A DNA stretch of 64,000 nucleotides from NCBI GenBank assembly GCA_965287045.1, contig OZ336878.1:104222001-104286000 (forward strand), written 5' to 3'. This stretch comes from Carcharhinus amblyrhynchos. Its lineage: Eukaryota. This document shows, one piece after another, positions 107 to 57,100 of this stretch (positions within the stretch are counted from its first letter, which is position 1; the number at the start of each line of letters is the position of its first letter). A program made the position numbers and the translations under genes. Below the pieces are notes generated by a model, which was given only the letters and a program-made list of their open reading frames with translations, was not told the DNA's origin and made no database searches.

Positions 107-133
107 CAGCTTCTTTCTCATTAAGTTTTATTT
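107..133 (-). CDS. 27-nt micro-exon, type A (EIKLNEKEA)
   Basis: ttttcattaacag|AAATAAAACTTAATGAGAAAGAAGCTG|gtaaat; open in phase 1; similar to 10304-10330. Confidence 0.72.
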
Positions 134-27100: not shown

Positions 27101-30100
27101 CTTTTTTTCTGTTAATGCAATCTCTGTTTCAAACACGATTGAAATAATGTACACAACTCTGTGAAAGACGTAGTAGAATTCACTCATTTGACATAGAAGA
27201 AGTGCAGGTTCTCCAGAGTCTTTTCATGGATCGAAAAGTTAGACAATGAGGACTGACTGCATTAAGTACTCTTGCAGGATAATAAACTTAAATTAATTTA
27301 AAATATTCTTGGAATATTAAATTTCACTAAGGTTTTTAGGGTAATTATTAAAAGTTGATCTGCTATATGGAGAGAAGTTTTGCTGTTGCTGACAAAATCT
27401 AATGCGAAAGACATAAGTTTCTGAGTCAGATTTCCCTCCGTACAATTATTGGACGAGTTTAGAAATTAAGGCACCAGTTTCTTTCTGTGCTCAGGCGCCT
27501 ATCTAAATGACACTGACGACAACTTTGCTGGTATATATTATTTGATATTACGTTTCTAAGGAAAATTACTTTCTCGTAATTACACATTGAAGATCTTTTG
27601 ATGGCGTTACTCACCGCTCAGCTGTTGAAGTTTCTCGCATTTTTCGAGCTCTGAAAAGTTAAAAAGCAGACTTAAGTGTACGGTTCCAGAAATCTGGAAT
27701 GGCCTTTTCCATTTAGGCATAGCTTACTTTGTGCAGTTCTTGGGAGAGATTAGAAATGAATTCTGGTGCTCCATTTGCAGCCCTGATTTTTTCTTGCATT
27801 TATGCCAAGTTGTGTAAAAATCACATGTTTTCGGTTTCTGCCATTAGGAAAGTCACGTGGCAAAGTCTACGGTATAATCTTTTGATTTCGTATTACTTTG
27901 ATGCGTTTTATGTGATTGCTGCACTCCGTGTTCAAACATCCATACTGCTTAGGCGGCCCTATATATTAAAACGGCTAAACATTGCATAAAGTAACTAGAA
28001 TATTTTAAATTCCAGATTTTTACCATGACTTGCATCTTGAAGTTGTGACTCTATGAAATAGGAATGAAAGTAAGATATATAAAGAGGAAAGCGTAAACAG
28101 GTTGAATTTATATAACGATTTCAGTCTAATAAATCTTTCAATGGCACTTTTTAAACAATTATGAAACAAAATACTACAGGCAGATGATACCGTAGTTTTT
28201 TTTTAAAAAATCCTTCCTGAAGGAATGGAAACAGCGAAATACAGGAGGGAAGGGACGCGAGAATGGCAGACGGATGTATTTCAGAGGTCAGTGCCTTGGC
28301 AGGTGGACCATCGCCTGTGCTGTGCTTAAAATTCGGAAGGGTATAGGGATTGGAAATAGCCGAGCACAGTTATGAGGACGGCTGCAGACTGGCGCAATTC
28401 ACACAGATAAAGCGTAGAAACGCTTTGGAGGGTTCAATTAAGCGATCAATTAAATTAAGATTCTGAGATTTGCTTCAATCGAACGTGTTAAGTATGGGCA
28501 AGAGTGATTTGAATGACTTCAAGTTTACGCAAGGCAGAATTTCTTCTGGGGAGACAATGGCCAAGTGGTATTGTCGCTAGACTATTGATCAAGAAACTCT
28601 GCTAATATTCTGGATTCGAATCCTACCACACCAACCTGATGGAACGTGAATTCAATGAAAAATGGCTTGAAATTAATAATCTGCACGTAAGCATGAACGT
28701 ATGATGGACTGTCGGAAATATCCATCTGATTCACGAATGTCCTTTACGGATGGTAATTGGCTACCCTACCTGGTCTGGCCTGCTCTGGAACTCGAAAGGA
28801 CTACTCTGGAGCCACAGCAATGTGGTTGACTGCCCTTGGGCAACTCAGGATGCAATAAATGCTGGCCAGCCAGCGACGCCCATGTCCCACAAGTTAATAG
28901 AATAAAACAGGAGGCTGGCTTGCTTAATGGCGAGAGCGCCCCGTTTGAAAATAGGAAGGTCTCTTTCCAATGTTACCTCTTTTCTTCGCAAAATTTTAAT
29001 ATGATGACAATTAGAGATGTGTGGAGCAAGCGAGCGAGCGAGAGATATATGGACCAGCCTGGAGTGCATGAGCATATTCCAATCTTGAGTTAATTAAATT
29101 ACAATTCAAGTTTCAGCACCAGGTAAACTAAGAAAGTAACAAAGCTGGGTGATATTATGAAGGTGGACCGAATGTATACGTAATATATGACGAAACATCA
29201 TTGGTGAAGCAAGTTATTTAATTGCCCATTCTTAACTGCTCATGAGAATATACTTCTCATGGGCACTTAGGTCTACATTCTTGAGTTGCAGAAGCACATG
29301 TGGCGTAAGGTCAACCACAATACTGTTAGGATGAGCGTACTGTGGTTTGAATCCACGACACTAAGAAACGGAACTATAGTTCCAAATGAGGACGGTGTGT
29401 GTATTGGAAGACGTCGCGGAAGTGCTGGGTTTTCCAAATATGTTCTAACCTGGCTGTTCTCCGTGGTAGAATTTGCTGGTTTGTAAAGTCTTCACGGATG
29501 AGACTTAGTGAGTTGCTGCAGTACATCTTGTACTTGGTACACCCAGTTGCAACTTTGCGGCGGTGATGGAGGAAATGGATATAGAAGCTGTTAAATGGGT
29601 TAATAGTGAAGCAGGTTGCCTTGTTCTGGATGGCAACGAGCTTACTGCGTGTGTTGAAGCTGCACTCATCCGGGAAAATACAGAGTTCTCTATCACAATC
29701 CATGCTTGTAACTTGGAGATGGATGACAGTCTTTAGGATGTCAGAAAATGAGTTAGTCTCCACAGAATGCTTAGCATTTGATGTGCTCTTGTAGTTACAG
29801 CATTTATGTTGCTGGTCCAGTTCAGTTTCTGGTCGATGATAATGTCTGGATATTAAGCAATGTTCTTGACATTGAACGTGCAAGGGAGAAGGATGGGTTT
29901 TTTATGGAATGGCCATTGGCTCGCACTACTGTGGCGTATATGTTATATGCCAGTTATCAGCTGAAGACTGAACGTTGTCCTTGTCTTGCTGTGTTTGGAA
30001 AAAGTCTGCTTCAGAATGAATGGAGTCGTGATTGCACAATAATCAGAATTCCTCGCGACTCCATTCATTCTGAAGCAGCCCTTTTCCAAACACAGCAAGA

Positions 30101-33100: not shown

Positions 33101-36100
33101 GATTTAGTAAGGCATTTGTCAAGGTCCCACATGGAAGACTGGCATAGAACTGAAATCACATGGGATCGGGGGTGGGCTGACTAGAGGAACACAGAACAGG
33201 CTTGGTCCTAGGTGACAGAGAGTAATGGAGATCTGTCACTAGTAGTATTCCGCGGGGATTATTGCTAGAATCTCTGTTATTTGTAGTACATACAAGTATC
33301 TGGAAGAAAATGTTGGTGGTCTGTTGAGGAAGTTTGTGGATGACACGAAGGTTGATGGAGTTGCTGATAGAGCTGAGGATTGCCAGAGGATGCAACAAGA
33401 TATCGATAGACTGGAGAATTGGGCACAGATGCATTTTGGAGAATCAAATTTCGGTGTGAAAATGTGAAGATACAGTGGGATCTGGGCTTCAGGTTCACAT
33501 TTTCCTAAAAGGTGCAACACAAGTGTTCAAGGTGATTGAGAAGGCATATGTCATGCTTGCCTTCATTGGCCATGACATTGAGTATACGAGTTGGCAAATC
33601 GTGCTGCAGCTATGTAAAACCTTGGTTAGGTCCCATTTAGATTATTGACAGCTGTTCTGGTCGCCACACTACCAGAAAGATGTATAAGCTTTGAAAAGGA
33701 TGCAATGAATGTTCACCAGGATGTTGTCTGTTTTCGAGAGCGTTGACTAAGAGGAGAGGTTGAATAAATTAGAATTGTTGTCACTGGAAAAACAGAGGTT
33801 AAGGGAAGACCTGATGGAGCTCTACAAAATTATGAGAGAGATTGATATGATGGATCGACAGAAGCACTTTCCCAGGATGGAAGTGCCAATTACAAGAGCA
33901 TCTCCACTTCGTGATTACAAGGGAGCAAAGGTTCAAAATGAGTGGGAGAAGTTTAAGGACGATGCGTGGGGAAAGCTTTTCAAGCAGATTGGTAGATGCC
34001 TGGAATGTGCTATCTGAAGACAAGGAACATTAGCATCATCTAAGAGGAACCTGGATGTATGTATGGAGAGGGAGGGAACAGAGAGATGCAGACTAAGGGC
34101 AGAAGTTTTATTTAGTTTAGTTAGAGCATCATGATCGGTGCGGGATGAAGGACTAAAAGTCGTTTACTTTGTTCTTGGTTATTTGCTCAGCTTTGAAATT
34201 GTGAAAGTGTACTTTGAATAATTATTGCAGGAAATACATTACGACATATTTCATTTGACAATATTGCGCTCATTTAACGTTTCCACGTTTTTTTTCTTCG
34301 CACTTAGCTTGTAGAGGTATTATTCTTATCGGAATGACAGTCCAATAAAATACACATGTATGTATGATAGAACCATTATATGTATATTTCACCTAAAGTT
34401 TGTATGGTTTGTTTCAGTTTATTCATTTCTGAAAGATTAAAGAAGAAACATTTGAGATTTTATACTGTCTTGCACATTTATCGATTGCCATTAATTACAG
34501 TAAATTTAAGTGAAACAATTAACAGGAAAATTACGTGCATCATATTTTCATGGACTTTGCAATGATCAGCAGCGACCTTTTCCCAGGAACTGACAATATG
34601 GACAATAGGCACCACATTCGTATTCTATTAACTTCAAGTCAGGTAAAATTATGTAACTTCCATTCTATGCCCGCAGTGAGCATTCACTTGACTTGAAGCT
34701 TCAACAATGTTGAACAAGGCAACAATATCTGGCCAAAGTAGTTTGCTTCTTTAGGACTCCACACATAAAGATTTACTTTCTCAAATATGAGTTATAGAGG
34801 ATTCAATTTTAAGGAGAATAGACGGGCATTTCCGTGGACAGAAACGACAGTACAGGATAGTACGATGCCTACCTTGTTCTAGGATGAAGGATGTCTCAGA
34901 GCTATTACAGGGCATTTCTGAGGGGGAGGGTAAACAGCTTGTGGCTGTTGTACACATCGGGACAAATGACAGAAGTAAACAAATAGGTGAAGTCTGAAAA
35001 GCAGAATTGAGGGAGTTCACAATAAAATCAAGAAGGTTGTGATCTCAGGATCATTCCTTGTGCCATGTACTATTCAGTTAAAAAATATCAGGATATATTG
35101 GATTGTTACGTGGCTCAGCATATTCGGGGATGGTTTCCGATTCCTGGTGTACTAGAGCCGACTCTGGGGAAGATGGGAACAGTATAAGCTAAATCAGTTA
35201 CACCTGGGAAGGGCCAGGGCCGATGTCTGAGCGCTTGCTAAAGTGGTTGGAAAGTGTTTAGATCAAAATGGCAGGGGAATGGGAACCTATGCAAGGAATC
35301 AGAAGAGGAGGAATCAAGGGAAAAAACAAAGACAGAGAGGGAATAAGGAAAAGTGATTGGAAGAGAAAATAAGGGCTGGATTCAAAAAGTCCTTCACTGA
35401 AAAGTACTCGGAACATGGTAAGTAATGTTGACAAGACGAACTGAAAGGTTTAGCGCCATAATGCGTGGAGCATTGGCAATAAAGTGGATGATTTAATCAT
35501 GCGAATAAATGCAAATGGGTATGATATTGGGAGCGGCACGATGGCACGGTGGATAGCACTGCTGCCTCACAGGTCAGAAATCGGGTTAAATTCTAACCTT
35601 GGGTTACTGCCTGTGTGGAGTTTGCACATTCTTCCCATGTCTGCATTGTTTTCCCCCGGGGGCTGTGGTTTCCTCCCACTGTTCAAAGATGTGCGGGTTA
35701 GGTTGATTGGCTGTGCTAAAAAATTACCCCGGTGTCAGGGGAATTAGTGGGGTAAATATGTGGGGTTACGGGAATACGTCCTGGATGGGGTTGTGGTCGG
35801 TGCGGACTCGATGGTCTGAATGGTCTCCTTCTGCACTGTTCGGGATTCTGTGATTCCATAATATAGCCGCGATTAAAGAGACATAGCTGCAGGCTGACCA
35901 CGGGTGAAAACTGGACATCCAGGGGTATTCAGTTTTAGGAAGAAAAGTAAAGAATGGTGGGGAAGTAGAATTGCTAGATAAAGGGGAAATTATACATAAT
36001 GTTGAGGGAAGTTAGCTACGTCGATGTGGAATCGGTATAGCTAGAGCTAAGAAACACCAAGAAGCACAAAATGTTTGCAGCCGTTGTATATAGATCCTGG

Positions 36101-39100
36101 ATTGTTGTTGTGATGTTACAAATTACATTAAACAGGAAATTAGAGATGCATGTGATGAAGGAACATCTTTAATAATGGGTCAATTTAACTTGCATTATAG
36201 ATATGGGGGCCACTCATCTAACAAAGGGGCAAAACCCCCAAAGCTAGTGGCGTTTGCTACCAAAATTAAACCTGTTGGACTTTAACCTGGTGTTGTGAGA
36301 CTACTTACTGTGAACAACTGAATACATACCTTGGGTCTGTCTTAACAAAGGAGGATACACATAAATTACTAGAAACATTGGGGAACACAGGGTGTAGATG
36401 ATGGGTATTGAAGGAGATCATATGAGTGGAGAAATGGTGTTGGGTAAACTGATGGGGATGAAGGACAATAAATCCCCAGGGTCTGATAACCTACATTTCA
36501 GTATAATTATAGAAGCCACCCAAGAAATAATCGATGAATGGCTGGTCATGTTCTAAGAGTGTATATACTCTGCAATAGTTCCTATAGATTAGAATGTAGC
36601 TAGTGGAAACCCAATATTTTTAAAAAGGAGCTAAATAGAAAACAGTGAATTATAGACCAGTAAGGCTGACGTCGGCATTGGGGAAAATTCTAGAATCTAT
36701 ATTAATGATTTTATCGAAAAACACTCAGAAAGCACTGACAGTTTCGGACAGAATTTAAGAAAAATAAACATTGCTTGGCAAAGCTATTGAATCCTTGAAG
36801 ATGTAGCTGGTAGAGTTGATAAGTGGGAGACAGCGAATGTGGTTTATTTCGACCTTCTGAAGGCTTCTGATAAAATCCCACGTAAGAGATTTTAATTTTA
36901 AACTTCATTGGATTGAAGCTAATGCTTCAAGGTGGATAGAAAATTGGTTGGCAGATAGGATCCAAAGAGTAGGAAGATATGGGTACTTTCCGAAATGGCA
37001 GGCAGTACCTACTGGGGTGCTACAGAAATCAATGCTGGGACCCCAACTATACACGATATATATTAATGATTTAGGCGAGGGAACTAAATGTAGTGTCTTC
37101 AAATTTGCAGATAACACAAACTGAGCTGTGCGGAGAATTTACAGATCTTTTAGCCTGATTTGAGCAAGTACAGTGATTAGCCAATACAGTATAACTTGAA
37201 TATGTGTGAGGTTATCCAGCTTGGGAGCAATAAAGGGAAGGAAGATTACGACCTGCAGGTCCTTAAATTAGAAGAGGGGGGTGTGCAACAAGTCCTATGT
37301 ACCCTCATTCATCACCCACTAAAGTTAAGCATGTAGGTGTAGCAGGCAGTAAAAAAAGCATATGTTAATTTGGCCTTCGTAGTGCAGATTCAAATACAGG
37401 AAAGGGATTTCTTGATGCAATTATTCAGCGGCTTGGTGAGGTCACACCAGGACTATTGCGTGAAGTTTTGGCCTGTTTAGCTGAGGAAGTTTATTCTTGC
37501 TTTAAAGAGAATGTAAGACGGTTTACGAGACTCATTCCTGGGATGGCAAGACTGACGATATTGGGATATTGAGTTAGTAAGCATTGCATTCACTAGAGTT
37601 CAGAATAATGAGGCTGGGGTGGGGTGGGGTGGGGTGGAGTGGGGTGGGGCGGGGTGCTGGAGTGGGGGAGGAAAGGAGGGGATGGGGTTGATGCTGGAGG
37701 GCCCTCATTGAAGCAGATGAAATTTGATGAGATAGATGAAAACAACGACATTCCCACTGACGGGAGTGCCCAGTCTGCTGAGAATAAACGTAAACCATGT
37801 ACGGCCGAGATGAGGATACAATTCTTTACCAGAGTTTGAGTTCACTTACTAGTGTCACAAGTAGGCTTACATGAACTACAAATTTATTGTGAAATCCCTG
37901 AGTCGCTGCACTCCACATCTTGTTCGCATACACTGAGGGAGAATTTTAGCGTGGCGAATACACCTAACCAGCAGGTCTTTAGGACATTAGGAGGAAGCCA
38001 GAGCAGTCAGAGGAAACCCATGCATACACAGGGAGAACGTACAGACTCCCCAAAGACCGTTACTCAAGCTAAGAATCGAGCGTGTGTCCCGAGCGCTGCG
38101 CAGCAGCAATGCTGTGTGACTGCAGTGACCACTATGTCACTGCGCCGTCGGTTGTCAGAATTTGCTACCACAGAATGCAATGAAGTCACGCAATTGTATG
38201 TTTTCAGGAAGAATTCCGATATAGCACTTAGGGTGAAGGGGTTAAAGGATCTGGGGTGAAGGTGGGGTCAGGCATGATCATAATGAATGGCGAAGCAGCC
38301 TCGAAGGGTCGAATTGCCTCTTTTTCTCCTATAAGCTATGTTTCTATTATCTCCGGAGTCTTGGCAATGAGAACGTTTTGATGAAATGCAGACCTCTTAA
38401 ATGCATATTCACAGGTCATTATGGCATTGTTCTTTCGGTGAACCTGATGTGCAGACATGACTTTTGTGTTTCCTGCTTACAACACTGATTATGCTTTAAA
38501 AGCATTTTATCAGCCCTGATTCACTTTAGGAAGTATTGTGGCCTTGAAGAGTGAAGTAAAAATGCAAACCTTCCCTTTTCCGATTCCTAAGGTACAATAT
38601 TTGAAACTACGTTGCATTGTTTACAGCCTCAACGTTGTATTGGACTGCAACGGACGTACAATAACGGGGCACAACTTCACATGAAATGCAAAATCTTACT
38701 GAGAGTTTTTTGTATCTTTCCAATGGGTTCAATCTTTCATTATTTCCATTGAAACGGCATAGTTTTCGTGAGTTACGAATTGCAACTTGAAAATAGCATC
38801 TTATTTGCATTGATTTACATGTTTGGATGGTAAAGGCAACCAATAGCCTTCGTGGCAAATGCATTGAAAATACTGTCGATTTTTTATACAAACCCTTCCG
38901 CAAACAGTTTGGACGGCAAATAACCAACTTATATAAATTCCGCTGCCATATAAATTATAAATTGCAGATATATTTACCCTTGGCGTAACGCAAAGGCACG
39001 AGATTTTAACAATTAATTGTGATATTCTACTAATATATACCTGCAGTTTTGTTCGAAAGTCGATTTTCTAAAACAAAATGCAAAATAACAAAATCTTAAA

Positions 39101-42100
39101 TATGATAATCATTCTTGTTGTCATAAGAATTCGGCATCACTGGCAGGATCAAGATTGATTGAAAGTCTCCAATTGGCTCCTGATGGGTCAAATCATTTGC
39201 TTGTACAGTTGCAATTGATGGCGCGTGCTTAGACCCTTTATTGGAGGGGCGGGTGAAGGGGCGGGAGTTTCATCCCAGTGACGTGTCCAATTGACTGTAC
39301 ATTCCACCGTACATGAATAGAACGAAATGCAACACGTAAAGATAATGCTTACTTATTACTTGATGACTGCACAATTGAAACAGATCATTTGTCAATCGTA
39401 AACTATTGCTTTACAGAAGGCAAGTTCAGCAAAGAACGTCACGCTTTAGAGGTATATAAATTAACGTTTGATGAGCTTGCTCACCTTTATCTTGCTGATT
39501 GAGAAGTGCAGCGTTCAATTCTATTATCAAAACAAAAAGAAGAGAGTTAAAACTGAAAAAAGAATCAGTTAATGATGTCTTATAGCAAAGCGTCCAGAAA
39601 CACATAAACAATATTTTAGATACATATCGGGTCTAATAGGGGAAGATAAAACAGCACAAAATTAATTTGATTTTACAAGAATATTATATTATTTATGAAT
39701 TTAATGCTATTTCATTTTTAGAAGAAAGTCAAAACATTTGTTAAATGTCGAAACATCGTATTGAGTTTATACAATTGATATGAACGATCTGGATTTTATT
39801 TGGTGCACAGGTTTCTGGAAAATGAATTAATCAAGATAAAAATATATGCAGCAATCTGCATGGAATAATGACATTTCTACGCAATCACTTGCATAATCAG
39901 TAATTTTGCGTGATATTAATAAGTTAAATGGCAAGCAAATGCATTCATCATTAATCAAAATCAATGAAGTACCATTGTCTTTGGCAAGCAGTTGCTGCTC
40001 TGAAAAATAATTTCTGAGATCAGTACACATGTTAACCATAACAGCATGCAGTAAAGTTTGTAATCAATCTACAACACTTTTCATGACAGTGGCAACCCGA
40101 AAATCGATGGTGAAGGCGTCAGTGATGGAAATCCCAAGAGAATATTGTTAGTTTCTTTTTTCTTGGAGATCGCCATTTCTGGCTGTTGCATGGTATGAGT
40201 GACGCTTGAAACTAACCAGAGCAAATTAAACTTCTCCTGAGTATTTTTGCCTTCTTCAGTATTTGAACATTTAAGACTGATACTGAAAAAGTGCTATTAT
40301 CACTGGATTCTACTTTTTAAATTTGGTATTGAAAAAGTGTTATCATCAGTGAACATCCTACTTTTGAAATTATGTAAATGTTTTGTTATATTGCATTGCT
40401 CTCCAAACCTCTGACAGTGATATCCTAATGCTGAAATTATTGAGTTCGAAGGATCACAACCAATTATCTTTGTGATAAGTATTAGTTTAAGCAATGACAA
40501 TTTTCTCCAGCGTTTCGCTCTTACTTCCTACTGCTACATCAGGTAGAATGCAGTCTTGATGCCGATGAATGACTCATCTCTGGAATTCAGTTGTGGCATG
40601 AGTTTGGATGTAATGCACTCTGGAAATGGATGGCCCTGATTCAACCCAAGTTTAGTGGTTGTGATCAATTTTTTGTTAAAGAAGTGAAGCTACAACCCAG
40701 GTGTATTTGCTTGTTACATGGTGAAAGCAGCGTACATAACAGAGCTAACCGATCCCACAACCAACGGTTCAGATCTCATTTTTGCAGTGTTGCTACACCC
40801 AGTTGCGAATGGTGATGGACAATTACACAACTAACAGAAGCAGTAGGATCCACAAATATCTCGATCGTCAACCAAGGTGAACTGGTCACATCAGTGCAAA
40901 AGACAAGGCTGAATAACGTGCAACGATCTTCAGCCAGTCCTGCCAGATGCATGGTCAATCACTGACTTTTCCGAGATTCTGGTGTTGTCAGACTTCTTAC
41001 TGTGTTTACCCCAGTCCAAACGCCGGCATATCCACATCATGACTACTTTTCTGAGATTATCAGCATCACAGATGGACTTCGTGATCTAAGTTGATTCAAG
41101 AATTTTCAAGAAACTCCATTGGGCACTGGATTTACAAATGCTATGGAATCCGACAACATTTCAACAATAGCACTGGCGAATACTGACATCTACCTGTCAA
41201 AGTGCAAAGTTATCCAGATACGACCTGACACCAAAACGCCAGATAACATAAACTGGCTAATTAACGTTCCATCAGACTATGTCCATATTCATCAATGATG
41301 AAATTTATATTCGGCCGTGCTATGGTGCATGACAACTAAGCAGTCACCTATTTGCCGAAGCTTCCACAGCTCCTGACTTCAATGCACCCTTGTTAAAAGC
41401 ATGCACTCAACAGGTGAGGTGACATCAAAGCAACACTTGACAGATTGTATGACCAAGGAACCCTAACAGAACTGAAGTTCACTGGAATCATGGGAAAAGC
41501 TTTCCACTACTTTGAGTCATACCTAGAAAAGTCGTAGCTGGTTGTTAGTGTTGGCGATCATCCTCTCAGTCCCAGGACTGCAGTTCATATGATTCACAGG
41601 ACAATATTCGAGCTCTGCCCATCTTTAGTAGCTTCCTCAATCATTTTTTCTCCATTATTAAGTCAGGATTGTAGATGGTTGCTGATGTTCGAGGAATGCT
41701 CAGCGCTATTCCTGCCTGTACAGCTGTCCAGCTGTAAAGCAATCGTGTCCACGTGCAGCAAGGACTGAAAAACATTCAAACTCGGGCTGCATGGCTAGTA
41801 AAATGCATGTCACATAAACTGCAGGCAATGGCCATATCCACGCCTCGGAAATTAAACAATCCCCTCTTCATGTTCAATTGCATTATGATCACCGGCTTGG
41901 TTGGCACTCGATTAGCAACCTCCAACTTTCACTTCCTCCACCACAGAGGCACAGCGGCTGTAGTACATGTCATCTATATGGTACGTTGCAGCAATTTAGT
42001 AAGGCTGACTCGATAGCACCTGCCAACTTACGAACTCGACCACCTAGAAGGGCAAACATAGAAAATGAGTGGAACATGACCACGTGCAATTTTCCTACCC

Positions 42101-45100
42101 ACTGCATAACATTGGTCCTTGGAAGCATATTGCTCTTCCTTGAACACCGCTGAGCAACATCACAGAAACTCCGTCCTAACAGCACTGTGGGTACACCTAC
42201 ACCACATGTTTCAAGAGGGCGGCTCTCCTCCACCTTTTTAAGTGCCATTATGGATGCAAAATAAATGTTGGCCGCTGCAATGATTCTCCCTCGCCCCTTT
42301 TACACCCTGCATCCCAAGAAATGATAATAATATTTATTATAATTTGCTTAATAACTTGAAAGTAGAGGGCAGTTTTCCTAACGTTGCTGACTTTAAGATT
42401 AGACTCATGGGATATCATTGAGGATGAGGATGTATTTGATTATTACTCTTCCTGCTCTCTATATAATTATTCGTCATCATTCCCAACAGGATGTCACTGC
42501 CATGCAGTGTTTTGATTTGATCCGTTGAATGGGATCGAATTTTGCATGGAACTGTTACTTCTACTGTGAATTATGCATATAATCCTAATGCTGATATTTG
42601 AGGTTTGCAGCACATTTTATGTAGGCCATCTGACGAACTTGCCCTGCTCTGTTACACACCTCAGTGAACCAGGGTTGAGTCTCTGACTTGATGATAACGG
42701 TAGTGTACCGTTTGCAACGGATCATGATGCTGCAAGATTGTGACTGAAAGCAATTCTGTTTATTTCAATGACCCAAAATTAGTCATGAATGACCAGAGAT
42801 ACCACATTTCTTCTGCTCCCCACCTCCGCCACCCCATTTATCAGAAAAATGCAACACAATGAGTTCCATCTTTTCTGAGAAGATGTTGTTGAGTTCAAGT
42901 AATAGAATCTCAGGATGATGTATCTGTCACACGTACACAGCTCAAAAGGAGATGAGGAAAAACCAACTTTTGTTCACTCTCACCTGTTGTATATGTTAGC
43001 AGCATGCTATTATAATATAAAGATTTTTGACAGAGCAAGGGTTAATGTGAGTCTGGGGAATGGTTCCATTCCTGGTGCGATGTATAGAATTACAAGTAGA
43101 AGGCTTTTGGATTATATTCTAGAGAAATCCAACATGCAGCAGCACAAATGCATGATGATACCTGGAAAACATAGATATATATGGACGAGTTAAGAACAAA
43201 TGGTTAATGTTTAAACAGACCAAACAAACTTTTGCAGTAGTACCAATTTGCTTTCAGGGATATATCTATCCGGTCCAGTATTGACAATGACGTCAATCGC
43301 ATAATGACACCCTCAGAATTTATTGTGATACACTAAGCATTGATGAGCATGATGGATTCCGAACAGATCCAGCAGGTCTGGACATGACCTCCACGGGGAG
43401 CTGAGGGCGAGCAGGACGAGCAGAATTACATGCGGCTGCAGTCACTAAACGTATTGAATACTAACCGTATTCAATTCACTAATATTTCCATGAATCTTGC
43501 GATTAAGTCATTTCAGTTGGGAGAGGAATGCAGTACGCCACCAGCAGCATATGCGTAATCAAAGAATACAGTGTTAGCCTGGCGAAGAAATGCTGCTTCC
43601 ACAGCTATTAATCCCTGCCAAGCAGTGAAAGCTGCTACTTTATTAACCACTTTCCATTCATCATAACATTGGGGATGTTCACTGATAATGACGCAGTGTT
43701 CAATTTAATCTCGAAGACCTTACACAATGAAGCATTGTAAGCCCATCTGCAGAAAGACGTGCAAACAGTTGAGACTTGTTCTGATAAGCATTATAGCATC
43801 AAAGGAATTTCAGCTGCCGAAAAAGAGCGGCTAAAGAACTTCGAGCGCCATTTAATAGCGTTAGCACAATCTAATCTCCAAAGATTAGCATGTTGGACAT
43901 GCTCCTTAAACAAAGGCTGGGTATGGCTAGTGAGCAGGTGCCCGGGAGCTTTGAAGCCTAATTGCCCACAACTTCTGCCCTGTACATTTCCAATGCTTAA
44001 TGCAGCTTTGAAATTGATACTTTCTTGAGTGGATAGGCGAAGTTGCAAAAATGCTCAAGAACCTGAACAAGGCAAACAAAAGCTTTGTTTGTATTTTAAA
44101 CTTCTCACTCTGATAGACAGCTTACCTATTCGCTCCTCCCATCACAAGTGTACAGTGAGTGTAATATTCATCACTTACGAAATTCATTCACTGAGATTTC
44201 TGCAAAGACATTTCTCAAGTTCACTCCTTCGATTAACTAAGACAACCGTTGTAGGCTCTCGGGAACGCTACCACATCATTGCTCCCCTCCAAGGCACAGT
44301 GTACCAAACTGACTTGCAAATATATCGTACCTTATTATTGCTGAATCAAAATGCTGGAAAATGCTCCTTGGTAGAAACAAGGAGTATTTTAAGAGCATGT
44401 ATTGCGGCGGTTCAAGACGTTTGCTCAGATTAAAAGTTTCAAGGGCAATTGAGGAGGGGAAATAAATATTGAGCACTCAAGTGACATTTCCAAATAGTCA
44501 ACTAATCCCCTTTCAGCAGCATTGCCTGTTCACCGCTCCGTGCCGTGCCTTGATCCAATTATACCCAGGTCCTTATCTATGCTTCAGATGAACTCTAAGT
44601 TTCTGATTGCAGGTACGCATCATCACAAGTGAACAACACATATATACATTCAAGTGAAGTATCAGTTATCTAACGTACATTTTGACTTGGATGCTGCTTG
44701 GATACTAACTTGTGACTTCACGAAGTTTTTGAAGTTCTGATGAAGAAGATAATTTCAATTAGGTTGCATGATCCATTCTCTGAATGTAGAGATAAAGAGC
44801 AACAAGCATATTGCCCAATATTAAAGATAGCACATGAACAACAATTCCACCGATTGGAAAGAGATTAAAGGCATTACCTGCCCTCAGTTGGATCAACCTC
44901 TCATCTGCAAAATGGAATGTTTTATTGGAAAGTAATTGCCGATTTAGATAAATATTCAGAAAGAAAGGAAAACAGTCTCCCAACAATGTTCGCTTTTCAG
45001 TTCAATCATTCGAATCAACTCATGTTCCGTAGCATTGAAGGCCATACAACTGAAAGCAAATTATGCTCAAGTATTTTGAGTCATTTTGTGTCTCCTGTTT

Positions 45101-48100: not shown

Positions 48101-51100
48101 CGTTATACTTAGAAAATGTAGAAGGTTTGAAGAGAGACACAAGCATTAATATAGTTCTCAGGGTTCCATATATACATATTACCGGGGGTGGCACGGTGGC
48201 ACAGTGGTTAGCACTGCTGCCTCACAGCACCAGGGACGCGTGTTCGGTTCCTGGCATCGGTCATTCTCTGTGTGGAGTTTGCACATTCTCCCCGTGTTTG
48301 CGTGGGTTTCCTCCGGGTGCTCCGGTTTCCTCCCACAGTCCAAAATGTGCGGGTCAGGTGTATTGGCCATGCTAACGTGTCAGAGGCACTAGCTAGGGTA
48401 AGTGCATGGGGTTATAGGGATAGGGGCTTGGTGGGAACGTGGTCGATGCAGACTCGATGGTCCGAATGGCCTCCTTCTGCACTGTAGGATTCTGTGATTT
48501 AAGGTAAAGGCTAATAGACGGACCACTTCAGTTTTTCGGCGAAGTTTGCTTATTAGTTATGTATTTTGAGACAGATTTTCACGTTATTAACATATTCCGC
48601 AGGACTTACCATCGGTTTTGTATTTCGTGTCCTGGTCTGAGCGAGAGCAATAATAAAAATCATCTTAGCCACAATATAAATCGTAGGATCAAGGTTTATT
48701 ATTATTTTTGTCACTTCATTCATCCTTTAAGAATACAGGAGGGAAGAACGATTTATTACTTGGAGAAAAAATCTTTTTACCTTTCTTGGCGTCAGTGAGC
48801 TTTTTTTCTGTTGCGAAACATCAACAATCACTTTGCTGTAATGCCGGAAAATATCTATGATTTGTTTTCATTGGCAATTCTTGATAGTGTTTGCAACCAC
48901 GATATAGAAGAATGTCACTGACGTAATAGCGAAGCACTGCCGCTGCTGGAGGTCAGAAATAAAAAGAATAAGTAAAGAACGGACTGCAAGGACGCTGTGC
49001 CATTCGGTGAGAGTATGGACGATCTGACTGTGATTTCAAATTCACTTTCCTGTCCGCCAAAAACATTTACCTCCCTTGTATTTGAAAAAGCTTTCAAACT
49101 TAGATTGAATGAAATGAATTGCCAAACGCTTTTTGGCGCAGAGAATTCGACAGGCTAATGATATTCGGAGAGAAATAATATATTTGAATCTATATTTCTG
49201 ATTGTTGAATTCTGATTTTAAACATTGTACCCTTGATCCAGACGTGCCCACAAAATTCTCATCTTCTTGCGCTGCATCTTATAAAGTCCCATCACGATAT
49301 TTTATGTTTCAGTGACATCACCTTGCGTTCTGCTGAATTACAATGCATAAAGTATCTTGTACGCGAACATAAAATCGGAACGCTGCTCTATACCCATCGT
49401 AACTCATAAGCGTTAACTAGAACAACTTACGCTGTTTCATTGTTAACATGGCACCATTCTGCCACGCCACACCCAGTTGAATCTGATGTTTTGTTTGGAA
49501 AGTAAGCGATCATCTTTGAAGTTTAATCAGAACAAATCTAGACAAACTCTTTTAGCTGCAAATTTCACGCATCAACTTTTCCACTATTCTGAGGGGTCCA
49601 TCTTAAATTAAAATGCACGTGATCAAAAACAAGTATTTTCACTTTCATGCCATGAGTAGGTCTTGGGTTATAATTTCTGAAATTGGCAAATGTTACGTGG
49701 TTCTGCTCCATAATGCGATGCTGCCAAATTTAAATTAATATTTAAGCATATAACGGTTCGAATTAATTAAAAAGCAAAAATGTTAAAAATAATTCACATA
49801 CATAACAAGACACGTATCACGTGGCTAAAGAGCCCAATCCGTAAGCCGCTCCGCTGAAGACAAACCTGTGAAATGTTTTGGGTGGTAGAATTTGTCTTTT
49901 GATTTGAGATCGCCGGCAATTCTTTCTCAGGTTCCTGTTCGGACCTCCTCTTGTTGTCTGATGTTCCCAAAAAATTGTGCTTTCAATCAGGAGGCCCTTA
50001 GGCCCATTCCGGCAGTTGGTTGTGGACAATGGTGCAGCGTTCCTTTAAAAAAAGAAGTCTACGGTTTTGCAGAAAGGCGATTGCCTTGGTACCAATTCCT
50101 TTTGGGCGATAACATCATATAGCGCAAGTCTATTGGTCCCATCATGATTGAATGCAATTGAAGTCAATGATACAAAACATCAGACAGAACACAGACGGGG
50201 AAACGTCTCCGTCATCGATCTTGTTCTGCAACGCAAGTGAAATCTTGCATTGTTGAAAAGCACTTACCTGAAATTTGTAGCATTTTAGTTAATTCTGTTT
50301 TTTCTGAAAAAGAGAAAATGACCGACTATCGAGTAAATGACACCCTGTTAAACCACTGAGATTAAACTACGACTTTTACTTTGCAGTGTATGGACTCTAA
50401 AAAACAGATGTTGAAATCTGTTATACAATTGCCACGTAACTCTTTAACATTCCATCCCAAGAGGCCGACCAAGTTAACCTACATTTCAATATAGAGATTA
50501 TCATGTCCGCTCTTGAAATTTCCCGTGCCCCAGGTTCCCACAAGGTCTTGAAAGGGCGGACATTCTCTGAGCGTTTTATAATTGTAGCTCATGATGATGT
50601 AGGCACATTTCCTGAGCAAAAATATACATGAAGAATATGTGTCGTATAGATTAATCCAAAATGAACTTATATTTTCCCTGTGGATTTCAATAAGATAATT
50701 ATTATGATCATTATTATTATAACGACGAACACTTAAACATTTGTTTCGATCAACTGATGACAGTTCATCCAGAGTTACAGTTAAAGATGTCAGCTGCAAT
50801 AACATAGCAAGACGATTCAGAAGTATACATTTTTAACGTTGTATCGAATTGTTGCACAAACGGAGTGGTACCGATCCTAGCTATAGGTCACAGTTTTACA
50901 ACAGACAGATATTCTATTCTTCATCGCTCAGTAATTACTTATGGGTTTCTGTGTCGCTGGCCTTTCGTCAGAGGCGACAGCTTCAGGTCTGCCGATCCAC
51001 ATCAAGCATGTCTGACCAGGGGACTCCCCGGCTCAATGATGGATTTACAAGTTGGTAATAAATTTGTTTGCTGCATTAAGAGCATAGCTTCTGTGACCAT

Positions 51101-54100
51101 CAAGTCCCGAGGTTTGCCTTGAACCCAGAACATGCGAAAAAAGAACTAAGAACGGGAGTAGACAATTCAGCCATTCGAACTCACTCCGCCATTTAACATC
51201 ATTATGGCTGATCTTATTCTGGTCGGAAATTCACTTTCCTGCCCTATAGCCCTTTATTCCGCTTTTCATCAGTAACATATCTATCTTTTTCTTGAATTTG
51301 CTGATTGATTCTGTCTCCACTCCCATCTGGGCTAAAGAGCTCCACAGATTCACAACGACCTGAGAGATGTATTTGCTCCTCACCTCAGTTTTGAACCTAC
51401 CTCTTGTCACTCTATGTCCAGAACCTCTTGTTCTAGACTGTCTCACAAGGGCAGACAACTATTCAACGTCCAGCTTCTCAATCCTCTTTGGCATTTTATA
51501 CACCTTAAAGAGATCTCTTTGATTCTTCTGAAATCCAGCGAGAACAGGCCAAAGCCAATCAACTGCTTCGTTGATTTTCATCTCCCATCAATGTTTTCTG
51601 GCATTGCTGTGTGAGTTATTGTTCTTCTTGGATACCTCCCTTTCTCTAAAGTCCGTGACAACACGTGCCATTTGCATTTTGTACGATGTCTTTCAATTTC
51701 ACGTCATTTATTCTCTCAGTTCTGGAAGTGCGCATTTTGCTATTTATAGAAACTCTTGAGTACAGAAGGAGGCCATTCGGCCCTTCGAGTCTGCGCCAAC
51801 CACAATCCCACCCAGGCCCTATTTCCATAACCATAACTACCATGCTAATACACCTGACATTGGGGTCAATTTAGCATTGCCAATCAACCTAACCCGCACA
51901 TCTTTAGAGTGTGAGAGAAAACTGGAGCACCCAGAGGAAACCTACGCAGAAACGGGGAGAATGTGCAAACTCCGTATAGATAGTGACAGGAGGCCGGAAT
52001 TGAACCGGGTCTCTGGCGCTGTGAGGCATCAGTGTTAACCGCTGTGCCGCAGTGCTGCCCTCTTTCTGCTGCACAGCAAATTCCTTTTTGATTAGCTTAC
52101 TCTCCTTTAAACCATTAAGGAATTTGCGCTGTTTAGTTTAATTCAATTACAGATACAGAACATTTAGATACTTTTTTTCCTAAGAAACATTACCTTTGTC
52201 TTTTATTTCAATCTGTTTGTCTGTAAAGACAATGTTAACTTTAATTTAAAGGGTAGGAATCAAACAGACATATTTTCTTTGCAATCTTCCAAAAATGGAA
52301 TAAACATTGCGATCTACAATCTAGAGAAAACAATACTGCATTGTTCAATTTTCTTTGTTATGGACTTAAGCTTATTTCGAATTACTGTCAACATTCTTAT
52401 GTTTAGCACCTCTAATGCATCTAAAAATCAAATTGATAGTCGAGTTCCCTTATATAACATTATCCTGAATATTTACAGCGTGAAAGTTATGCGTTTCGGA
52501 GACTAATTTTACCGATTTACTTCGATATATTTTTGTGCTTTCGCATTACTCCTCACGAAAACATCAACATTCTCGAAAGAATCAGATAACAGGTCGCAAG
52601 AAAGATGTTAAAAAAAAGCAGTCAAAGATTTCTGGGACTAAGTGTGCCTCACACGAACTGTGCACAAAATAATTCTCATGATAGGTGTTGGGAATTTTAA
52701 AGTAAACAGAATCTGCTGGAAATGCAACACAAGTCAACCAGCACCTTTATCAAAGTTCATGCGCCAGTTTCTTGACCTAAATCGTTTCCCCTTTTGACAG
52801 ATGGGGCTTAACTTTTTGAGGGTTTCTTGCATTTTCTATTCGTATCTTTACATGTCTACGTAGAAACGTGCTGATATGGAATGTTTTGCACCACCCACTC
52901 TTCTCCTCAAGTTTGTATTTGGCCAAAGAAGGGATACTGGCTTATTTTGAATTCACTGACCTAGATACTCTGACGCCATTTATATTCATTCCTTTCCACC
53001 CCTTTCCCCGCCCCCCTCCCCCTCCAACCCCCGTCCCCCAAAGTTACATCCAATACTGAAATCAACCAGTTAGTCATTTGATGGCATCAACTATGGGCTG
53101 GATTTTTCCTGTTCTTTGTAGCGATCTGAACAGTCAGGAATCAAGCGTGTTGAGCGGCGGAGTGTGGGGGTGGGGGCGGATCGCACGTGCGACCGATGGG
53201 ACCAAGAGAATAAAATGCCATTGGTTTTAAGCAGCCACAGCATACGTCCAGGAGAAGCCTCCAAATAGACAATTTTGAATATTGGCCTGGATGCCCCCTT
53301 GTTATGCCCCCTGAGCCTCCCAGACGCTTCTCATCATGTGTTTCACACCCGGGTAGTCATCCTCCGCGTACTGTCTACCTTATTCTCCTCCCAAAGTCTT
53401 CTTGCTGGAGGAATACCACCTGACTTACAACACCGTATCTTCTTCTTGCATGACTTAGTGCAGTACTAGTGATGGCCGTGGTGAGAAACTAGAGAACGAG
53501 TGGCCTCCGATTAACCAGCGGTTTTCTAAGGCAAGGATTACTGCTGATGGGGGGCATAAAACAAGCCGCGAGCCAAATTACTGTAGACCAATGTGGCTGA
53601 GGGAATGAATTGAATCAAATGCCATTTCAGTCGATAAGAACAGTTACGTCAATATTGGACATAATACACCGGACCACATGCTTGCTGTAGAATTTCATAG
53701 CACCTGAAGATACAAAGCGTTGTTAAGCCAATGAAAATGTATCATAAATGATGCATTTCTATGAACATAATCTCTATTCTTTCCATTATCCTAGAAACTG
53801 CGCGCTTTATTAACAATAAAACATTTAGGAATCAATGCATTGTGCTAAAATTCCGAAATATTTCTGGCAGATATACAAGAGTGATGGCACAAACCTGACA
53901 TTTTTATACGATTTTCTAGTTCTGTTATCCAAACAAAAAAAAATTGACCCTCATTCCACGATCTTTGTTGGTTGGATGCAATTGTGTCGAAAATCTTACT
54001 GCGTATTTTTCCATGACTTTAAATAATTATATTTTGTATTATCAGCTGGACGCCAGCCAGCATTACAAGTAAGAAAAGATCATAAAGTGTAACAAAGGGG

Positions 54101-57100
54101 TTCTGCCAGATGTTTTAAATTTGATTTACCAGAAAGAAAGTTGTGCCAAGTTGCTTAACCAGCTCGTGGCTGCGTTCGTGCACCTCCTTCCTTTTCATTC
54201 AAGTGATGCTTATGACTCTAGCACATTGTTTGCAATTCACCTGTTCTTTTCAAACACTTTTACAGAAACCGCTGACATGAATTGCTTTTTAAACGTATTA
54301 TAAAAAATTTCAAATGCATTAATTCCAAATGAAGACTTTACATGTTTTTGATGCCTCCGATCTAGATGTTTTCCAACTCTGAGTCACTGGGCATAACTGC
54401 TAGACTCAGGAATACCAGTATTGCGTTTTGAAGATTAGTTCAGTAAACGGAAGGAAGCACATTTGATTTGCATTCGGCCTTCTCTTAAAATGGTCTGTGA
54501 GAAAAAAATGTACTTCAATCCCTCAACGCCTTCCAGCAGCTCAAAGATAACATTCAGAAGTGCAGAATCACGTAAGCTGTCACGAGTGTTTCTCAGAAAT
54601 GTGATTTGATTTGATTTATTACTGTCACATGTATTAGCAGACAGTTAGAAATATTGTTTCTCGCGTGTTATGCAGATAGAGCATACCGTTCATTGAGAAG
54701 GAAAATACAGAGTGCAGAATGTATCGTTCTTGTCATAGCTAGGGTGTGAAGAATGATTAACTTAATGCAAGATAGGTCCATTCAAAAGTCTGATGGCAGC
54801 ATGGGAGAAACTGCTCTTGAGTCGGTTGGTCTGTGACCTCAGACTTATGTATCATTTTCCCGACCGAAGAAAGTGGAAGGGAGAATATTCAGGGTGCGTA
54901 GGGTCCTTAATTGATTTGCCGAGGCAACGGGAAGAGCAGACAGAGTCAATGGATGGAAGGCTTGTTTGCGTGATGGATTGAATATATCGAGATGCGATCA
55001 TTGTTTCAGTGATAATTGTTTCCGATTATTACAAACTAAATGTGCCAGCGTTATATCTTACAGCATTGGCTTATCCAACTTGTCGTAATTGTTGAAAACT
55101 TGAACAATGTTACCTCATTTAATTTTCATTTAATTAACCATGAATGAAAGGTAAAATGAGTGCCTTGTTTTTCAAACGTTTTTCCTTTAAATAGTAGCAA
55201 CATTCCTGTGACGTTGTAAATTGTTCTGTTTAACTGCAATAGGGTGACGCTACGGAGGTCAAATGATGACATAAATGACAGAAATGTCGTGACTTACAAT
55301 GAGAAAAATGTATAGAATGTTGTGAATTTAACAAAATTAAACATAAAGCTTTGTTTATTGAACCCAGTTTGCCCAACTTCAAACAGTGAGGGAAAATTGT
55401 AGAAGTACGCTGTATATTTCAGATGCTATGTGTTTTTCTTTCTGAGTAGATCCCTGAATAGATAATGCAATTTTTTTGAAAGTGGTGACTTCTATATCAA
55501 AGACACCATTCTTATGCTTACCTATCTGTTTTTCAAACATTTGATTCTCTATGAGGAATTGATACATACTTTCAATATAAAATCAAGTAGAAATGCAATG
55601 CTATCTTTTCAGGTAAATCGAGGAGATAACTTTTTTCATGTCCCGTTCCACTTAATCAGATTTATGGAATTATTCTTGATCCGAAATTTTATAGGTTTAG
55701 CTCTTGTTATCTTGCTCACGAAATCACGGAATACCGAAACACAATCAGGAGCAGTAGAATCAACAGTTACATCCAGTTCAACATCATTGTCATAACCCTT
55801 TTGGTAAAAATTGTCCATAAGCTATGAAGGACTGATGCACCATTTTGACAGTAAGAAGTCTCACAACGCCAGGTTAAAGCCCAACAGGTTTATTTGTAGC
55901 AAATGCCACTACATTTCGGAAGTGGCTGTTCCTTCGTCAGGTGGACTTTTGGGCCAGAGTCATCGTGGCAAAATTTAAATTCAATGCAAGCTCTTGGAAG
56001 TAAATTTTTAACGAAGACCATTAAACAATTTTCTATGTGGTAAAAACACAACTCCTTCATTTATTCCCTTTAGGGAAGCGAATCTGTCGCCTTGGCCTCC
56101 AGGTGGCTCCCAACCACAGCAATGTAGATGAATCCCAGGTGCTCTCCGAAATTGCTTAGCAAGCCATTGACTTGTATCTAATCGCTACAATTAAAACAGA
56201 AATAAATGAAAGCAGTCAGACAACACAGCATCGTCATAGACACCGGATATGAAAAGGGGCTACCTAGTCCTGTTCATTCAGCAAAGTACACCATAATCGC
56301 ATGTAGGATTTGCGCCAAAATTGGAAGGTTCGTCTCATAATCCATTCCATCAGTAATCTGGCATAGTTTTACTCACGGAATCATTCCCTACAGACAATGA
56401 TCCAGACACCGCTATCAGCAATCGGCTCTTTGTCCTATTACACCAGAAGGACAGATCCAGCAGATGGGGTGGCACAGTTGGATACCGTTTAGAGGGAAAC
56501 CTCAGCATCGACTGCAGACCGTATCAAAATCTCATGGCATCAGGTCAGTCGTGGTTTTGCGCTGATTACGACATAGCGTCCCCCTTCAGCACAGAACGAG
56601 AATTCCTCTATTTTGAACAGCACATGGAGGAATCATTAAGGGCGGTAGCGGCGCAGAATATATTTGTTTGACGGACTTGAATTCCTATTAACGACAGTGG
56701 CTCTGTAGCATCATTTCAGAACAAGCTGGCCCGTTTCTAAAGGAAACAAACCATCGACGAGGACAGTGGCAGTTGATGAGTGAACAAACAAGAGGGAAGA
56801 TATATTTGACTTTATCCTTACCAAACTGCCTTCCTCAGATGTATCTGTCCTTGACAGTATCGATAGGAGTGAGCATCACACAGTCCTTATGGAAGCAACG
56901 TCCCGTTTTCACACCGAGAATGCCCTCCATCGTGTTGTGTGGTACCGCCATCGTTCTAAGTGCGATTGGTTGCGAACGGACCTAGCAAACCAAGACGGGA
57001 CATCCATGTGACTCTAATAGCTAACAGCAGCAACAGAATCAAGCATCAAGACAACATTTGACAGAGTGACGCATCACAATGCCCCAGCAAAACTTAGCCA

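Follow-up and report, generated by a model that had tools for sequence, protein, structure and literature searches.

The 64,000-nucleotide (nt) stretch of the Carcharhinus amblyrhynchos genome analysed here (the window, C9:104222001-104286000) lies wholly inside one minus-strand gene of about 404 kb, in which a long array of micro-exons of two alternating classes leads to a terminal B30.2/SPRY exon; the window holds about one sixth of this B30.2 gene. The data below demonstrate the exons, their order, their division into two classes and the terminal domain, and we regard this architecture as close to certain. The fuller explanation, in which the micro-exons encode a coiled-coil rod ending in B30.2 and are spliced more loosely than they are ordered, appears probable.

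The gene was traced outward from the window in 10-kb stretches. Coordinates are given in the frame of the window, position 1 being its first letter and negative values lying beyond its low end. The gene opens with a short first coding exon, continues through at least 126 micro-exons and closes with the terminal exon. Its parts outside the window are as follows.

137539-137670, minus strand: first coding exon, 39 codons from the ATG, conserved with the paralogue and with the catshark start.
66388-128565, minus strand: about 20 micro-exons upstream of the window.
-261223 to -1024, minus strand: about 85 micro-exons downstream of the window.
-266820 to -266309 (C9:103955180-103955691), minus strand: terminal B30.2/SPRY exon, supported by Pfam, a catshark protein and solved relatives.

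The array spans 128565 down to -261223 and is, to our knowledge, among the longest micro-exon arrays known. Our catalogue of 126 high-confidence micro-exons, drawn from 136 retained candidates plus exon 28024, contains 68 exons of 27 nt, 32 of 36 nt, 16 of 24 nt and 10 of other lengths, with just three exons of 21 nt. Joined, the 126 exons give a stop-free peptide of 1,211 residues (1,420 with the head and the SPRY domain), and none of the 7,875 possible forward exon junctions creates a stop codon. A few extra exons with weak sites were recovered by projection from a tandem paralogue. Four exons (-46548, -188435, -193472 and -194023) have GC donors, and all of them match the catshark protein. 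One 36-nt exon, at 123034-123069, has kept its splice sites but lost the hydrophobic pattern present in the paralogue and in catsharks. The stretch at 139286-139671, conserved between the paralogues and having a common donor site and an indel, lies about 1.6 kb upstream of the first coding exon and is probably a non-coding first exon with its promoter.

A first-pass annotation of the window had named twelve of the micro-exons. All 12 proved to be AG...GT-bounded, open, in phase 1 and on the minus strand, the numbers quoted being low coordinates, by which we also refer to single exons. Over 264 kb, splice-bounded segments of 27 nt numbered 44 on the minus strand and 11 on the plus strand, which served as control; for 36 nt the counts were 29 and 14. 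This minus-strand excess implies that the exons are not chance segments. Across the gene span, 94 minus-strand candidates and no plus-strand candidate reached a combined score (splice strength plus rod-like composition) of at least 10, with approximate splice matrices. Exons 28024 and 39973 have weak donors, and were called from their position in the paralogue or orthologue; the donor flank of 28024 matches the paralogue at 16 of 17 nt. The exons of the window are listed here in gene order.

60173..60196, minus strand: B-type exon, 24 nt; paralogue and orthologue match.
55522..55548, minus strand: A exon, 27 nt.
53895..53921, minus strand: B exon, 27 nt, stutter module; ray orthologue skipped singly and together with the preceding A.
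52194..52220, minus strand: A exon, 27 nt.
50268..50303, minus strand: B exon, 36 nt; ray orthologue singly skipped.
48781..48807, minus strand: A exon, 27 nt.
48610..48636, minus strand: B exon, 27 nt; ray orthologue (8 residues) singly skipped.
44878..44904, minus strand: A exon, 27 nt.
44710..44736, minus strand: B exon, 27 nt; ray orthologue singly skipped.
39973..39999, minus strand: A exon, 27 nt, weak donor; 93% identity with the paralogue exon, orthologue match.
39485..39520, minus strand: B exon, 36 nt.
39041..39067, minus strand: A exon, 27 nt; ray orthologue singly skipped.
34393..34428, minus strand: B exon, 36 nt.
28024..28050, minus strand: A exon, 27 nt, diverged; splice sites, and a 9-residue unit at the same place in the catshark model and the paralogue.
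27615..27650, minus strand: B exon, 36 nt; ray orthologue (9 residues) singly skipped.
17323..17340, minus strand: linker exon, 18 nt; paralogue copy with intron homology.
16809..16835, minus strand: 27-nt exon with a weak donor, not caught by the scored scan; paralogue projection (E 1e-11) and a matching S. torazame peptide.
15680..15703, minus strand: A-type exon, 24 nt.
12356..12382, minus strand: B exon, 27 nt.
10304..10330, minus strand: A exon, 27 nt.
4772..4807, minus strand: B exon, 36 nt.
4045..4071, minus strand: A exon, 27 nt; ray orthologue singly skipped.
340..375, minus strand: 36-nt exon, B from its length and position; assigned to A by the blind mixture.
107..133, minus strand: A exon, 27 nt.

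Window candidates 45491, 34873, 28770, 27061 and 5338 were dropped, either because neither paralogue nor orthologue supported them or because they lay inside repeats. Very high-copy repeats, as judged by contig depth, occupy intron positions 40742-41048, 41970-42276 and 45961-46574 of the window, and reverse-transcriptase fragments of long interspersed nuclear elements occur in other introns of the gene. Four sequencing runs placed on part of the window cover introns as well, and derive from DNA of related organisms.

The two exon classes, postulated in the first-pass annotation, were recovered by a two-class mixture on residues 2-8 that was blind to exon length and order (120 of the 126 exons, six shorter than 24 nt being excluded). 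The gain was 78 log-likelihood units, as compared to at most 32 in 15 column shuffles. Class A has a hydrophobic residue 4, Lys or Arg at 7 and Asp or Glu at 6 and 8; class B has hydrophobic residues 2 and 5. The alternation of the classes, likewise anticipated, extends gene-wide, to 98 of 119 junctions; 20,000 shuffles gave a mean of 58.6 (standard deviation 5.3) and none reached 98. The 14 exons from 55548 to 27615 alternate ABAB at all 13 junctions.

We are very confident that this order follows a coiled-coil register. An A exon begins at heptad position e (residue 4 being a and residue 7, often Lys, being d) and a B exon begins at g (residue 2 being a and residue 5 being d), so that a 27+36-nt pair (9+12 residues) completes three heptads and keeps the register, and a 9+9 pair makes a stutter. 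Hydrophobic power at period 3.5 in the joined peptide was 0.553, the strongest of all periods, and did not exceed 0.382 in 300 shuffles of exon order; the 3.5-residue periodicity runs across exon junctions, as expected for a coiled coil. Position a is 73% hydrophobic, whereas position d is 42% hydrophobic and 27% Lys or Arg. With Leu/Ile in position a and Leu/Lys in position d, we infer a coiled coil of two parallel chains. When register was checked across the junctions by the e/g rule, 67 of 119 were continuous, 21 were stutters and 31 were other breaks. The 21-residue module put forward earlier does keep the register and is the commonest unit, but it is not the rule: the 49 A-to-B pairs of the gene comprise 21 of 27+36 nt, 14 of 27+27 nt and 14 of other lengths, and the 27+36 module accounts for four of the seven pairs within the 55548-27615 stretch. 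The 27+27 pairs are the stutters, and correspond to the 18-residue (7+11) modules with 27-nt B exons that had also been described.

Conservation supports the array. A tandem paralogue 400 kb upstream shares 70 colinear exon pairs with the gene. When 81 exons were projected onto it, 70 aligned in full, among them 66 intact exons, two dead rod exons and two linker exons with shifted alignments; in the reverse projection, 72 of 84 exons aligned and 67 were intact, the other five being linker exons. The paralogue counterparts of exons 87758 and 80457 are present but dead. The ratio of nonsynonymous to synonymous substitution (dN/dS) with respect to the paralogue was 0.47 (95% interval 0.37-0.60; 580 codons). 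By heptad position it was 0.35 at a, 0.29 at d and 0.52 elsewhere; by class, 0.31 for A exons and 0.59 for B exons.

The paralogue occupies 166,000-536,000 and has no counterpart of the region from about -140 kb to -253 kb. Its SPRY exon is disrupted by frameshifts and stops, yet purifying selection acts on its rod exons, which are intact; its product may be a rod devoid of B30.2. Four tandem repeats of about 6.7 kb at 296,133-316,427 of the paralogue carry one 21-nt linker exon each. A third copy lies farther upstream (592,000-783,000), with an apparent repeated block of exons of about 27-36-27-30 nt and with intron homology; tblastn found no SPRY exon at its 3' end, the copy having been traced to a point short of its 5' end.

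In RefSeq proteins of Scyliorhinus canicula, S. torazame and Narcine bancroftii the orthologous peptides follow one another as they do here (low-scoring short matches within the orthologue chains being excluded from the counts), and these homologues mark the organism as a shark. Pieces of the gene or of its tandem paralogue appear as XP_038671248.1 and XP_038671249.1 in S. canicula, as XP_072329363.1 and XP_072329362.1 in S. torazame, and as XP_069775393-428 in N. bancroftii. These models are automatic, split and without any gene description, and bear unrelated names (zinc-binding protein A33-like, CENP-E-like, golgin-like and myosin-like). As RefSeq divides the locus into consecutive models in all three species, there might be two genes, one for the rod only and one for the rod plus SPRY. 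However, the break point is different in each species and is spanned by a model of another species. The S. canicula break lies within the S. torazame N-half and the S. torazame break within the S. canicula C-half, which argues for one gene. Furthermore, phase 1 and colinearity are maintained across all the breaks, and no second start or terminal exon shared between the paralogues was found; two genes are therefore very improbable. Overlapping RefSeq models tile our single gene from the first Met through the SPRY domain.

The terminal exon encodes a divergent B30.2/SPRY domain. It scored 38.5 bits against Pfam PF00622 (cut-off 26.3; E 1.4e-9) and matched 86 solved sequences, led by BTN3A1 and TRIM21, and so belongs to this family; no match to Pfam PRY was found. 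It is 63% identical to S. canicula XP_038671249.1. The last micro-exon before it (27 nt, phase 1, -261223) is thus a short heptad exon directly ahead of a B30.2 exon. In a tree of 31 B30.2 rows, which is thinly sampled, has three Ig-bearing rows and is midpoint-rooted, a 100/100 branch set 13 rod-type domains apart from those of the TRIM, fish and immunoglobulin (Ig)-bearing rows.

This arrangement brings to mind the cytoplasmic tail of a membrane butyrophilin or BG protein, with Ig and transmembrane exons upstream. BTN genes do have short heptad exons before B30.2 (PMC6790196), and BG genes contain 27-38 heptad repeats in 21-nt exons (PMC5938342); hydrophobic codon 4 of the A exon is as in BG exons, and the reading frame of the first coding exon stays open ahead of its ATG. 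Against this, the first coding exon lies within about 28 kb of the last exon of the paralogue, with no Ig family found in between; the S. canicula and ray models begin at the Met of the first coding exon; and the B30.2 domain does not group with the sampled BTN rows. A membrane tail is extremely improbable.

The searches behind this statement were of several kinds. No Pfam Ig, RING or B-box family was found in 113 open reading frames of at least 55 residues from the interval bounded by the last exon of the paralogue and the first micro-exon. No credible Ig, RING or paralogue-shared transmembrane motif was seen in about 1 Mb, nor any Ig, RING or B-box in the orthologue models. No hydrophobic exon suggestive of a transmembrane helix is common to both paralogues, and none is evident in the catshark rod models. 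As a control, similar motif patterns detected RING and B-box in the neighbouring TRIM genes. Readings of the array as a C-type lectin neck, triadin-like or collagen-like were rejected, there being no lectin exon by motif and the array ending in SPRY. A first-exon Tyr motif, which the sharks share and the ray model lacks, is accordingly not claimed as a signalling motif.

The gene adjoins TRIM genes and ends at 103.96 Mb, 2.9 Mb from the major histocompatibility complex (MHC) class I cluster: all 82 MHC class I matches in the genome (82/82) lie on the same contig, at 89.6-101.1 Mb. A sister gene at C9:106383670-106473301 has the same A/B micro-exons followed by an intact SPRY exon, and is close to protein P0079. 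Three SPRY exons of the rod-type branch, with a few 21-, 27- and 36-nt exons upstream, lie on a second chromosome-size contig, C16, at 63.07, 63.15 and 66.44 Mb. Large clusters of B30.2 exons also occur on C9 at 96-112 Mb and on C41, C46, C53 and C73; six of seven sampled loci have RING and B-box motifs, i.e., are TRIM genes.

With regard to how the array grew, the suggestion of duplication by exon pairs holds in part. The S. torazame model contains a tandem repeat of one 27+36 pair (a 21-residue gap), but the duplicated units also include blocks of three to four exons and single exons. Runs of at least three similar exons recur 11 times (1.2 expected). Single-exon duplications gave two neighbouring 36-nt B exons, as well as 24- and 21-nt linker exons. 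One 24-nt linker exon is tandemly duplicated 812 bp apart (-71,867 to -70,127), the flanks showing 100% identity across 324 nt. A 5.3-kb duplication (-123,400 to -114,000) contains a linker exon of which neither copy has kept the acceptor. Two apparent 100% duplications were rejected as overlaps of neighbouring flanks. We propose that the gene expanded through duplicated pairs and through blocks of three to four exons. All introns being in phase 1, the reading frame is kept whichever exon is gained, lost or skipped.

The first-pass annotation had further predicted that isoforms would skip A and B exons in pairs, making the rod tunable in three-heptad steps. As a proxy for skipping we used RefSeq isoform models of N. 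bancroftii: 16 for the N-half (15 of 19 cluster members plus X17) and all eight for the C-half (8/8), four models with altered ends or starts being set aside. Ray exon limits were inferred by alignment, and the models carry no abundance. Among 16 distinct internal differences, 14 were of single-exon size (8, 9, 11 or 12 residues), one was of 18 and one of 23 residues, and none was of 21. Six of the single skips hit orthologues of exons in the 55548-27615 stretch. The 18-residue difference was an A+B pair, the orthologues of 55522 and 53895; that of 53895 was also skipped alone. Models with multiple events lost 17, 20, 29 or 30 residues, none a multiple of 7. In addition, median intron length is 2.4 kb for A-B and 2.0 kb for B-A, so that the A-B introns are not the shorter ones, and one 9-residue unit of catsharks is absent from all ray models.

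The prediction of paired skipping was thus not borne out by the ray models, and we consider regulated skipping of this kind unlikely. Some observations do speak for it: beside the 18-residue deletion and the tandem 27+36 duplication in S. torazame, the alternation is strongly retained in the gene, and the only dead rod exons among the 70 in the paralogue are an adjacent B36+A27 pair (one event), while 66 of the 70 projected exons are intact. Gene models are not counted reads, and paired skipping may still occur among abundant transcripts. Our preferred reading is that single-exon skipping is common, which we hold to be likely. Judging from that one event and the gene models, register seems to constrain the fixed gene order more than it does splicing: gene order follows register, whereas the isoform models largely do not. 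The two-exon code is a clean natural system in which to ask if the duplication, loss and splicing of exons are constrained by coiled-coil register.

The product would be a soluble protein of about 1,450 residues, with a short head, the A/B rod and the C-terminal B30.2/SPRY domain. The rod is likely a segmented dimeric coiled coil, and selection on that coiled coil presumably keeps the A/B alternation in the gene. Single-exon drops would introduce local register breaks, rather than length steps of three heptads. At a rise per residue of 0.1485 nm, 1,211 residues would form a rod of up to about 180 nm carrying two B30.2 domains, which might serve as a RING-less scaffold or tether. The B30.2 domain is likely ligand-binding, in innate immunity. 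Whether the role is immune rather than in trafficking we regard as an even call, made from the domain and the location alone.

The main rival to an immune scaffold keeps the same architecture, and sees in the protein a cytoskeletal or endosomal tether like a BG-derived zipper protein or an enterophilin, rather than an immune sensor. A soluble BG tail regulates actin-myosin (PMC5938342, PMC8813856) and enterophilin-1 binds sorting nexin 1 (PMC13749957), and the rod length fits a tether. However, MHC linkage, tandem copies that gain and lose parts, and the B30.2 domain are typical of immune families; we rate the tether as a real possibility that falls short of even. A more ambitious version of the immune scaffold is doubtful: an elasmobranch family of MHC-linked soluble B30.2 receptors on a 180-nm rod, diversified by the splicing of more than 120 droppable micro-exons, in which single skips would make stutters or hinges and pair skips would change length. 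If true, one locus would give many spacers or partner-selective dimers. On this reading it may also preserve the ancestral heptad-exon cassette behind the butyrophilin and BG tails.

Several points weigh against our reading of the micro-exon gene with its rod, B30.2 end and loose splicing. Identity to the paralogue is 75% in exons and 72% in flanking introns (the intron figure being biased upward); since exon identity barely exceeds that of the introns, constraint is moderate. Third-position identities of 0.319 (AA), 0.308 (BB) and 0.292 (AB) differ little by class, and because of this small difference a single ancestral pair for all A and all B exons is plausible rather than established. The 31 of 119 junctions that are neither continuous nor stutters, together with B-B-B runs and Gly/Pro/Ser linkers, imply that the rod is segmented. 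Splicing was deduced from RefSeq models of other species, each split in two, and low-level noise or misaligned micro-exons may account for the ray isoforms. Finally, MHC linkage by itself does not demonstrate an immune role.

We found no description of this gene in the literature searched, although subscription journals and supplements could list it; a term search in the main text of a shark MHC paper (PMC10751288) gave none of TRIM, butyrophilin, BTN or coiled. Chicken BG tails are made of 21-nt exons in which codons 4 and 7 are hydrophobic; exon number and read-through of introns are sources of their variation (PMC5938342, PMC8813856). BG genes are similar to the shark gene in being an MHC-linked tandem family, in encoding a long coiled coil in tiny exons with a split first codon, in the hydrophobic codon 4 (A exons here) and in varying by exon number and splicing. 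They differ in using one 21-nt exon per heptad and in having IgV and a transmembrane helix, without B30.2. The shark gene, in contrast, has two exon types (27 plus 36 or 27 nt), at least 126 exons and a B30.2 end, and no Ig or transmembrane exon was found in it.

Butyrophilins have a few heptad exons ahead of B30.2, one of which is skippable in macaque BTN3A (PMC6790196), and in several cartilaginous fish they lie on the MHC class I chromosome (PMC12841164). BTN and BTNL genes thus share with the shark gene the short heptad exons followed by a B30.2 exon, and the MHC chromosome. BTN has IgV, IgC, a transmembrane helix and only a few heptad exons, unlike the shark gene, whose B30.2 domain, besides its lack of a PRY match, falls outside the sampled BTN rows (the three Ig-bearing rows of the midpoint-rooted tree).

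TRIM proteins with B30.2 are also soluble, combine a coiled coil with B30.2 and are neighbours on the contig, but no RING or B-box was found in the shark gene, which has its own B30.2 branch; no heptad micro-exon array was found in the 20 kb examined of the neighbouring TRIM genes. Enterophilins have a layout like that of the shark gene: they are soluble, lack RING and Ig, and carry B30.2 at the end of a long leucine zipper. Long coiled-coil plus SPRY proteins of other chordates are alike in having a soluble zipper that ends in B30.2, without RING or Ig; one of them, P0099, falls outside the rod-type branch, on a long branch of unsure placement.

The present results define a mis-annotated gene family of cartilaginous fish beside the MHC, and bear on the origin of the heptad-exon tails of butyrophilin and BG genes. 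The gene resembles the heptad-exon tails of BG and butyrophilin genes, yet is neither.

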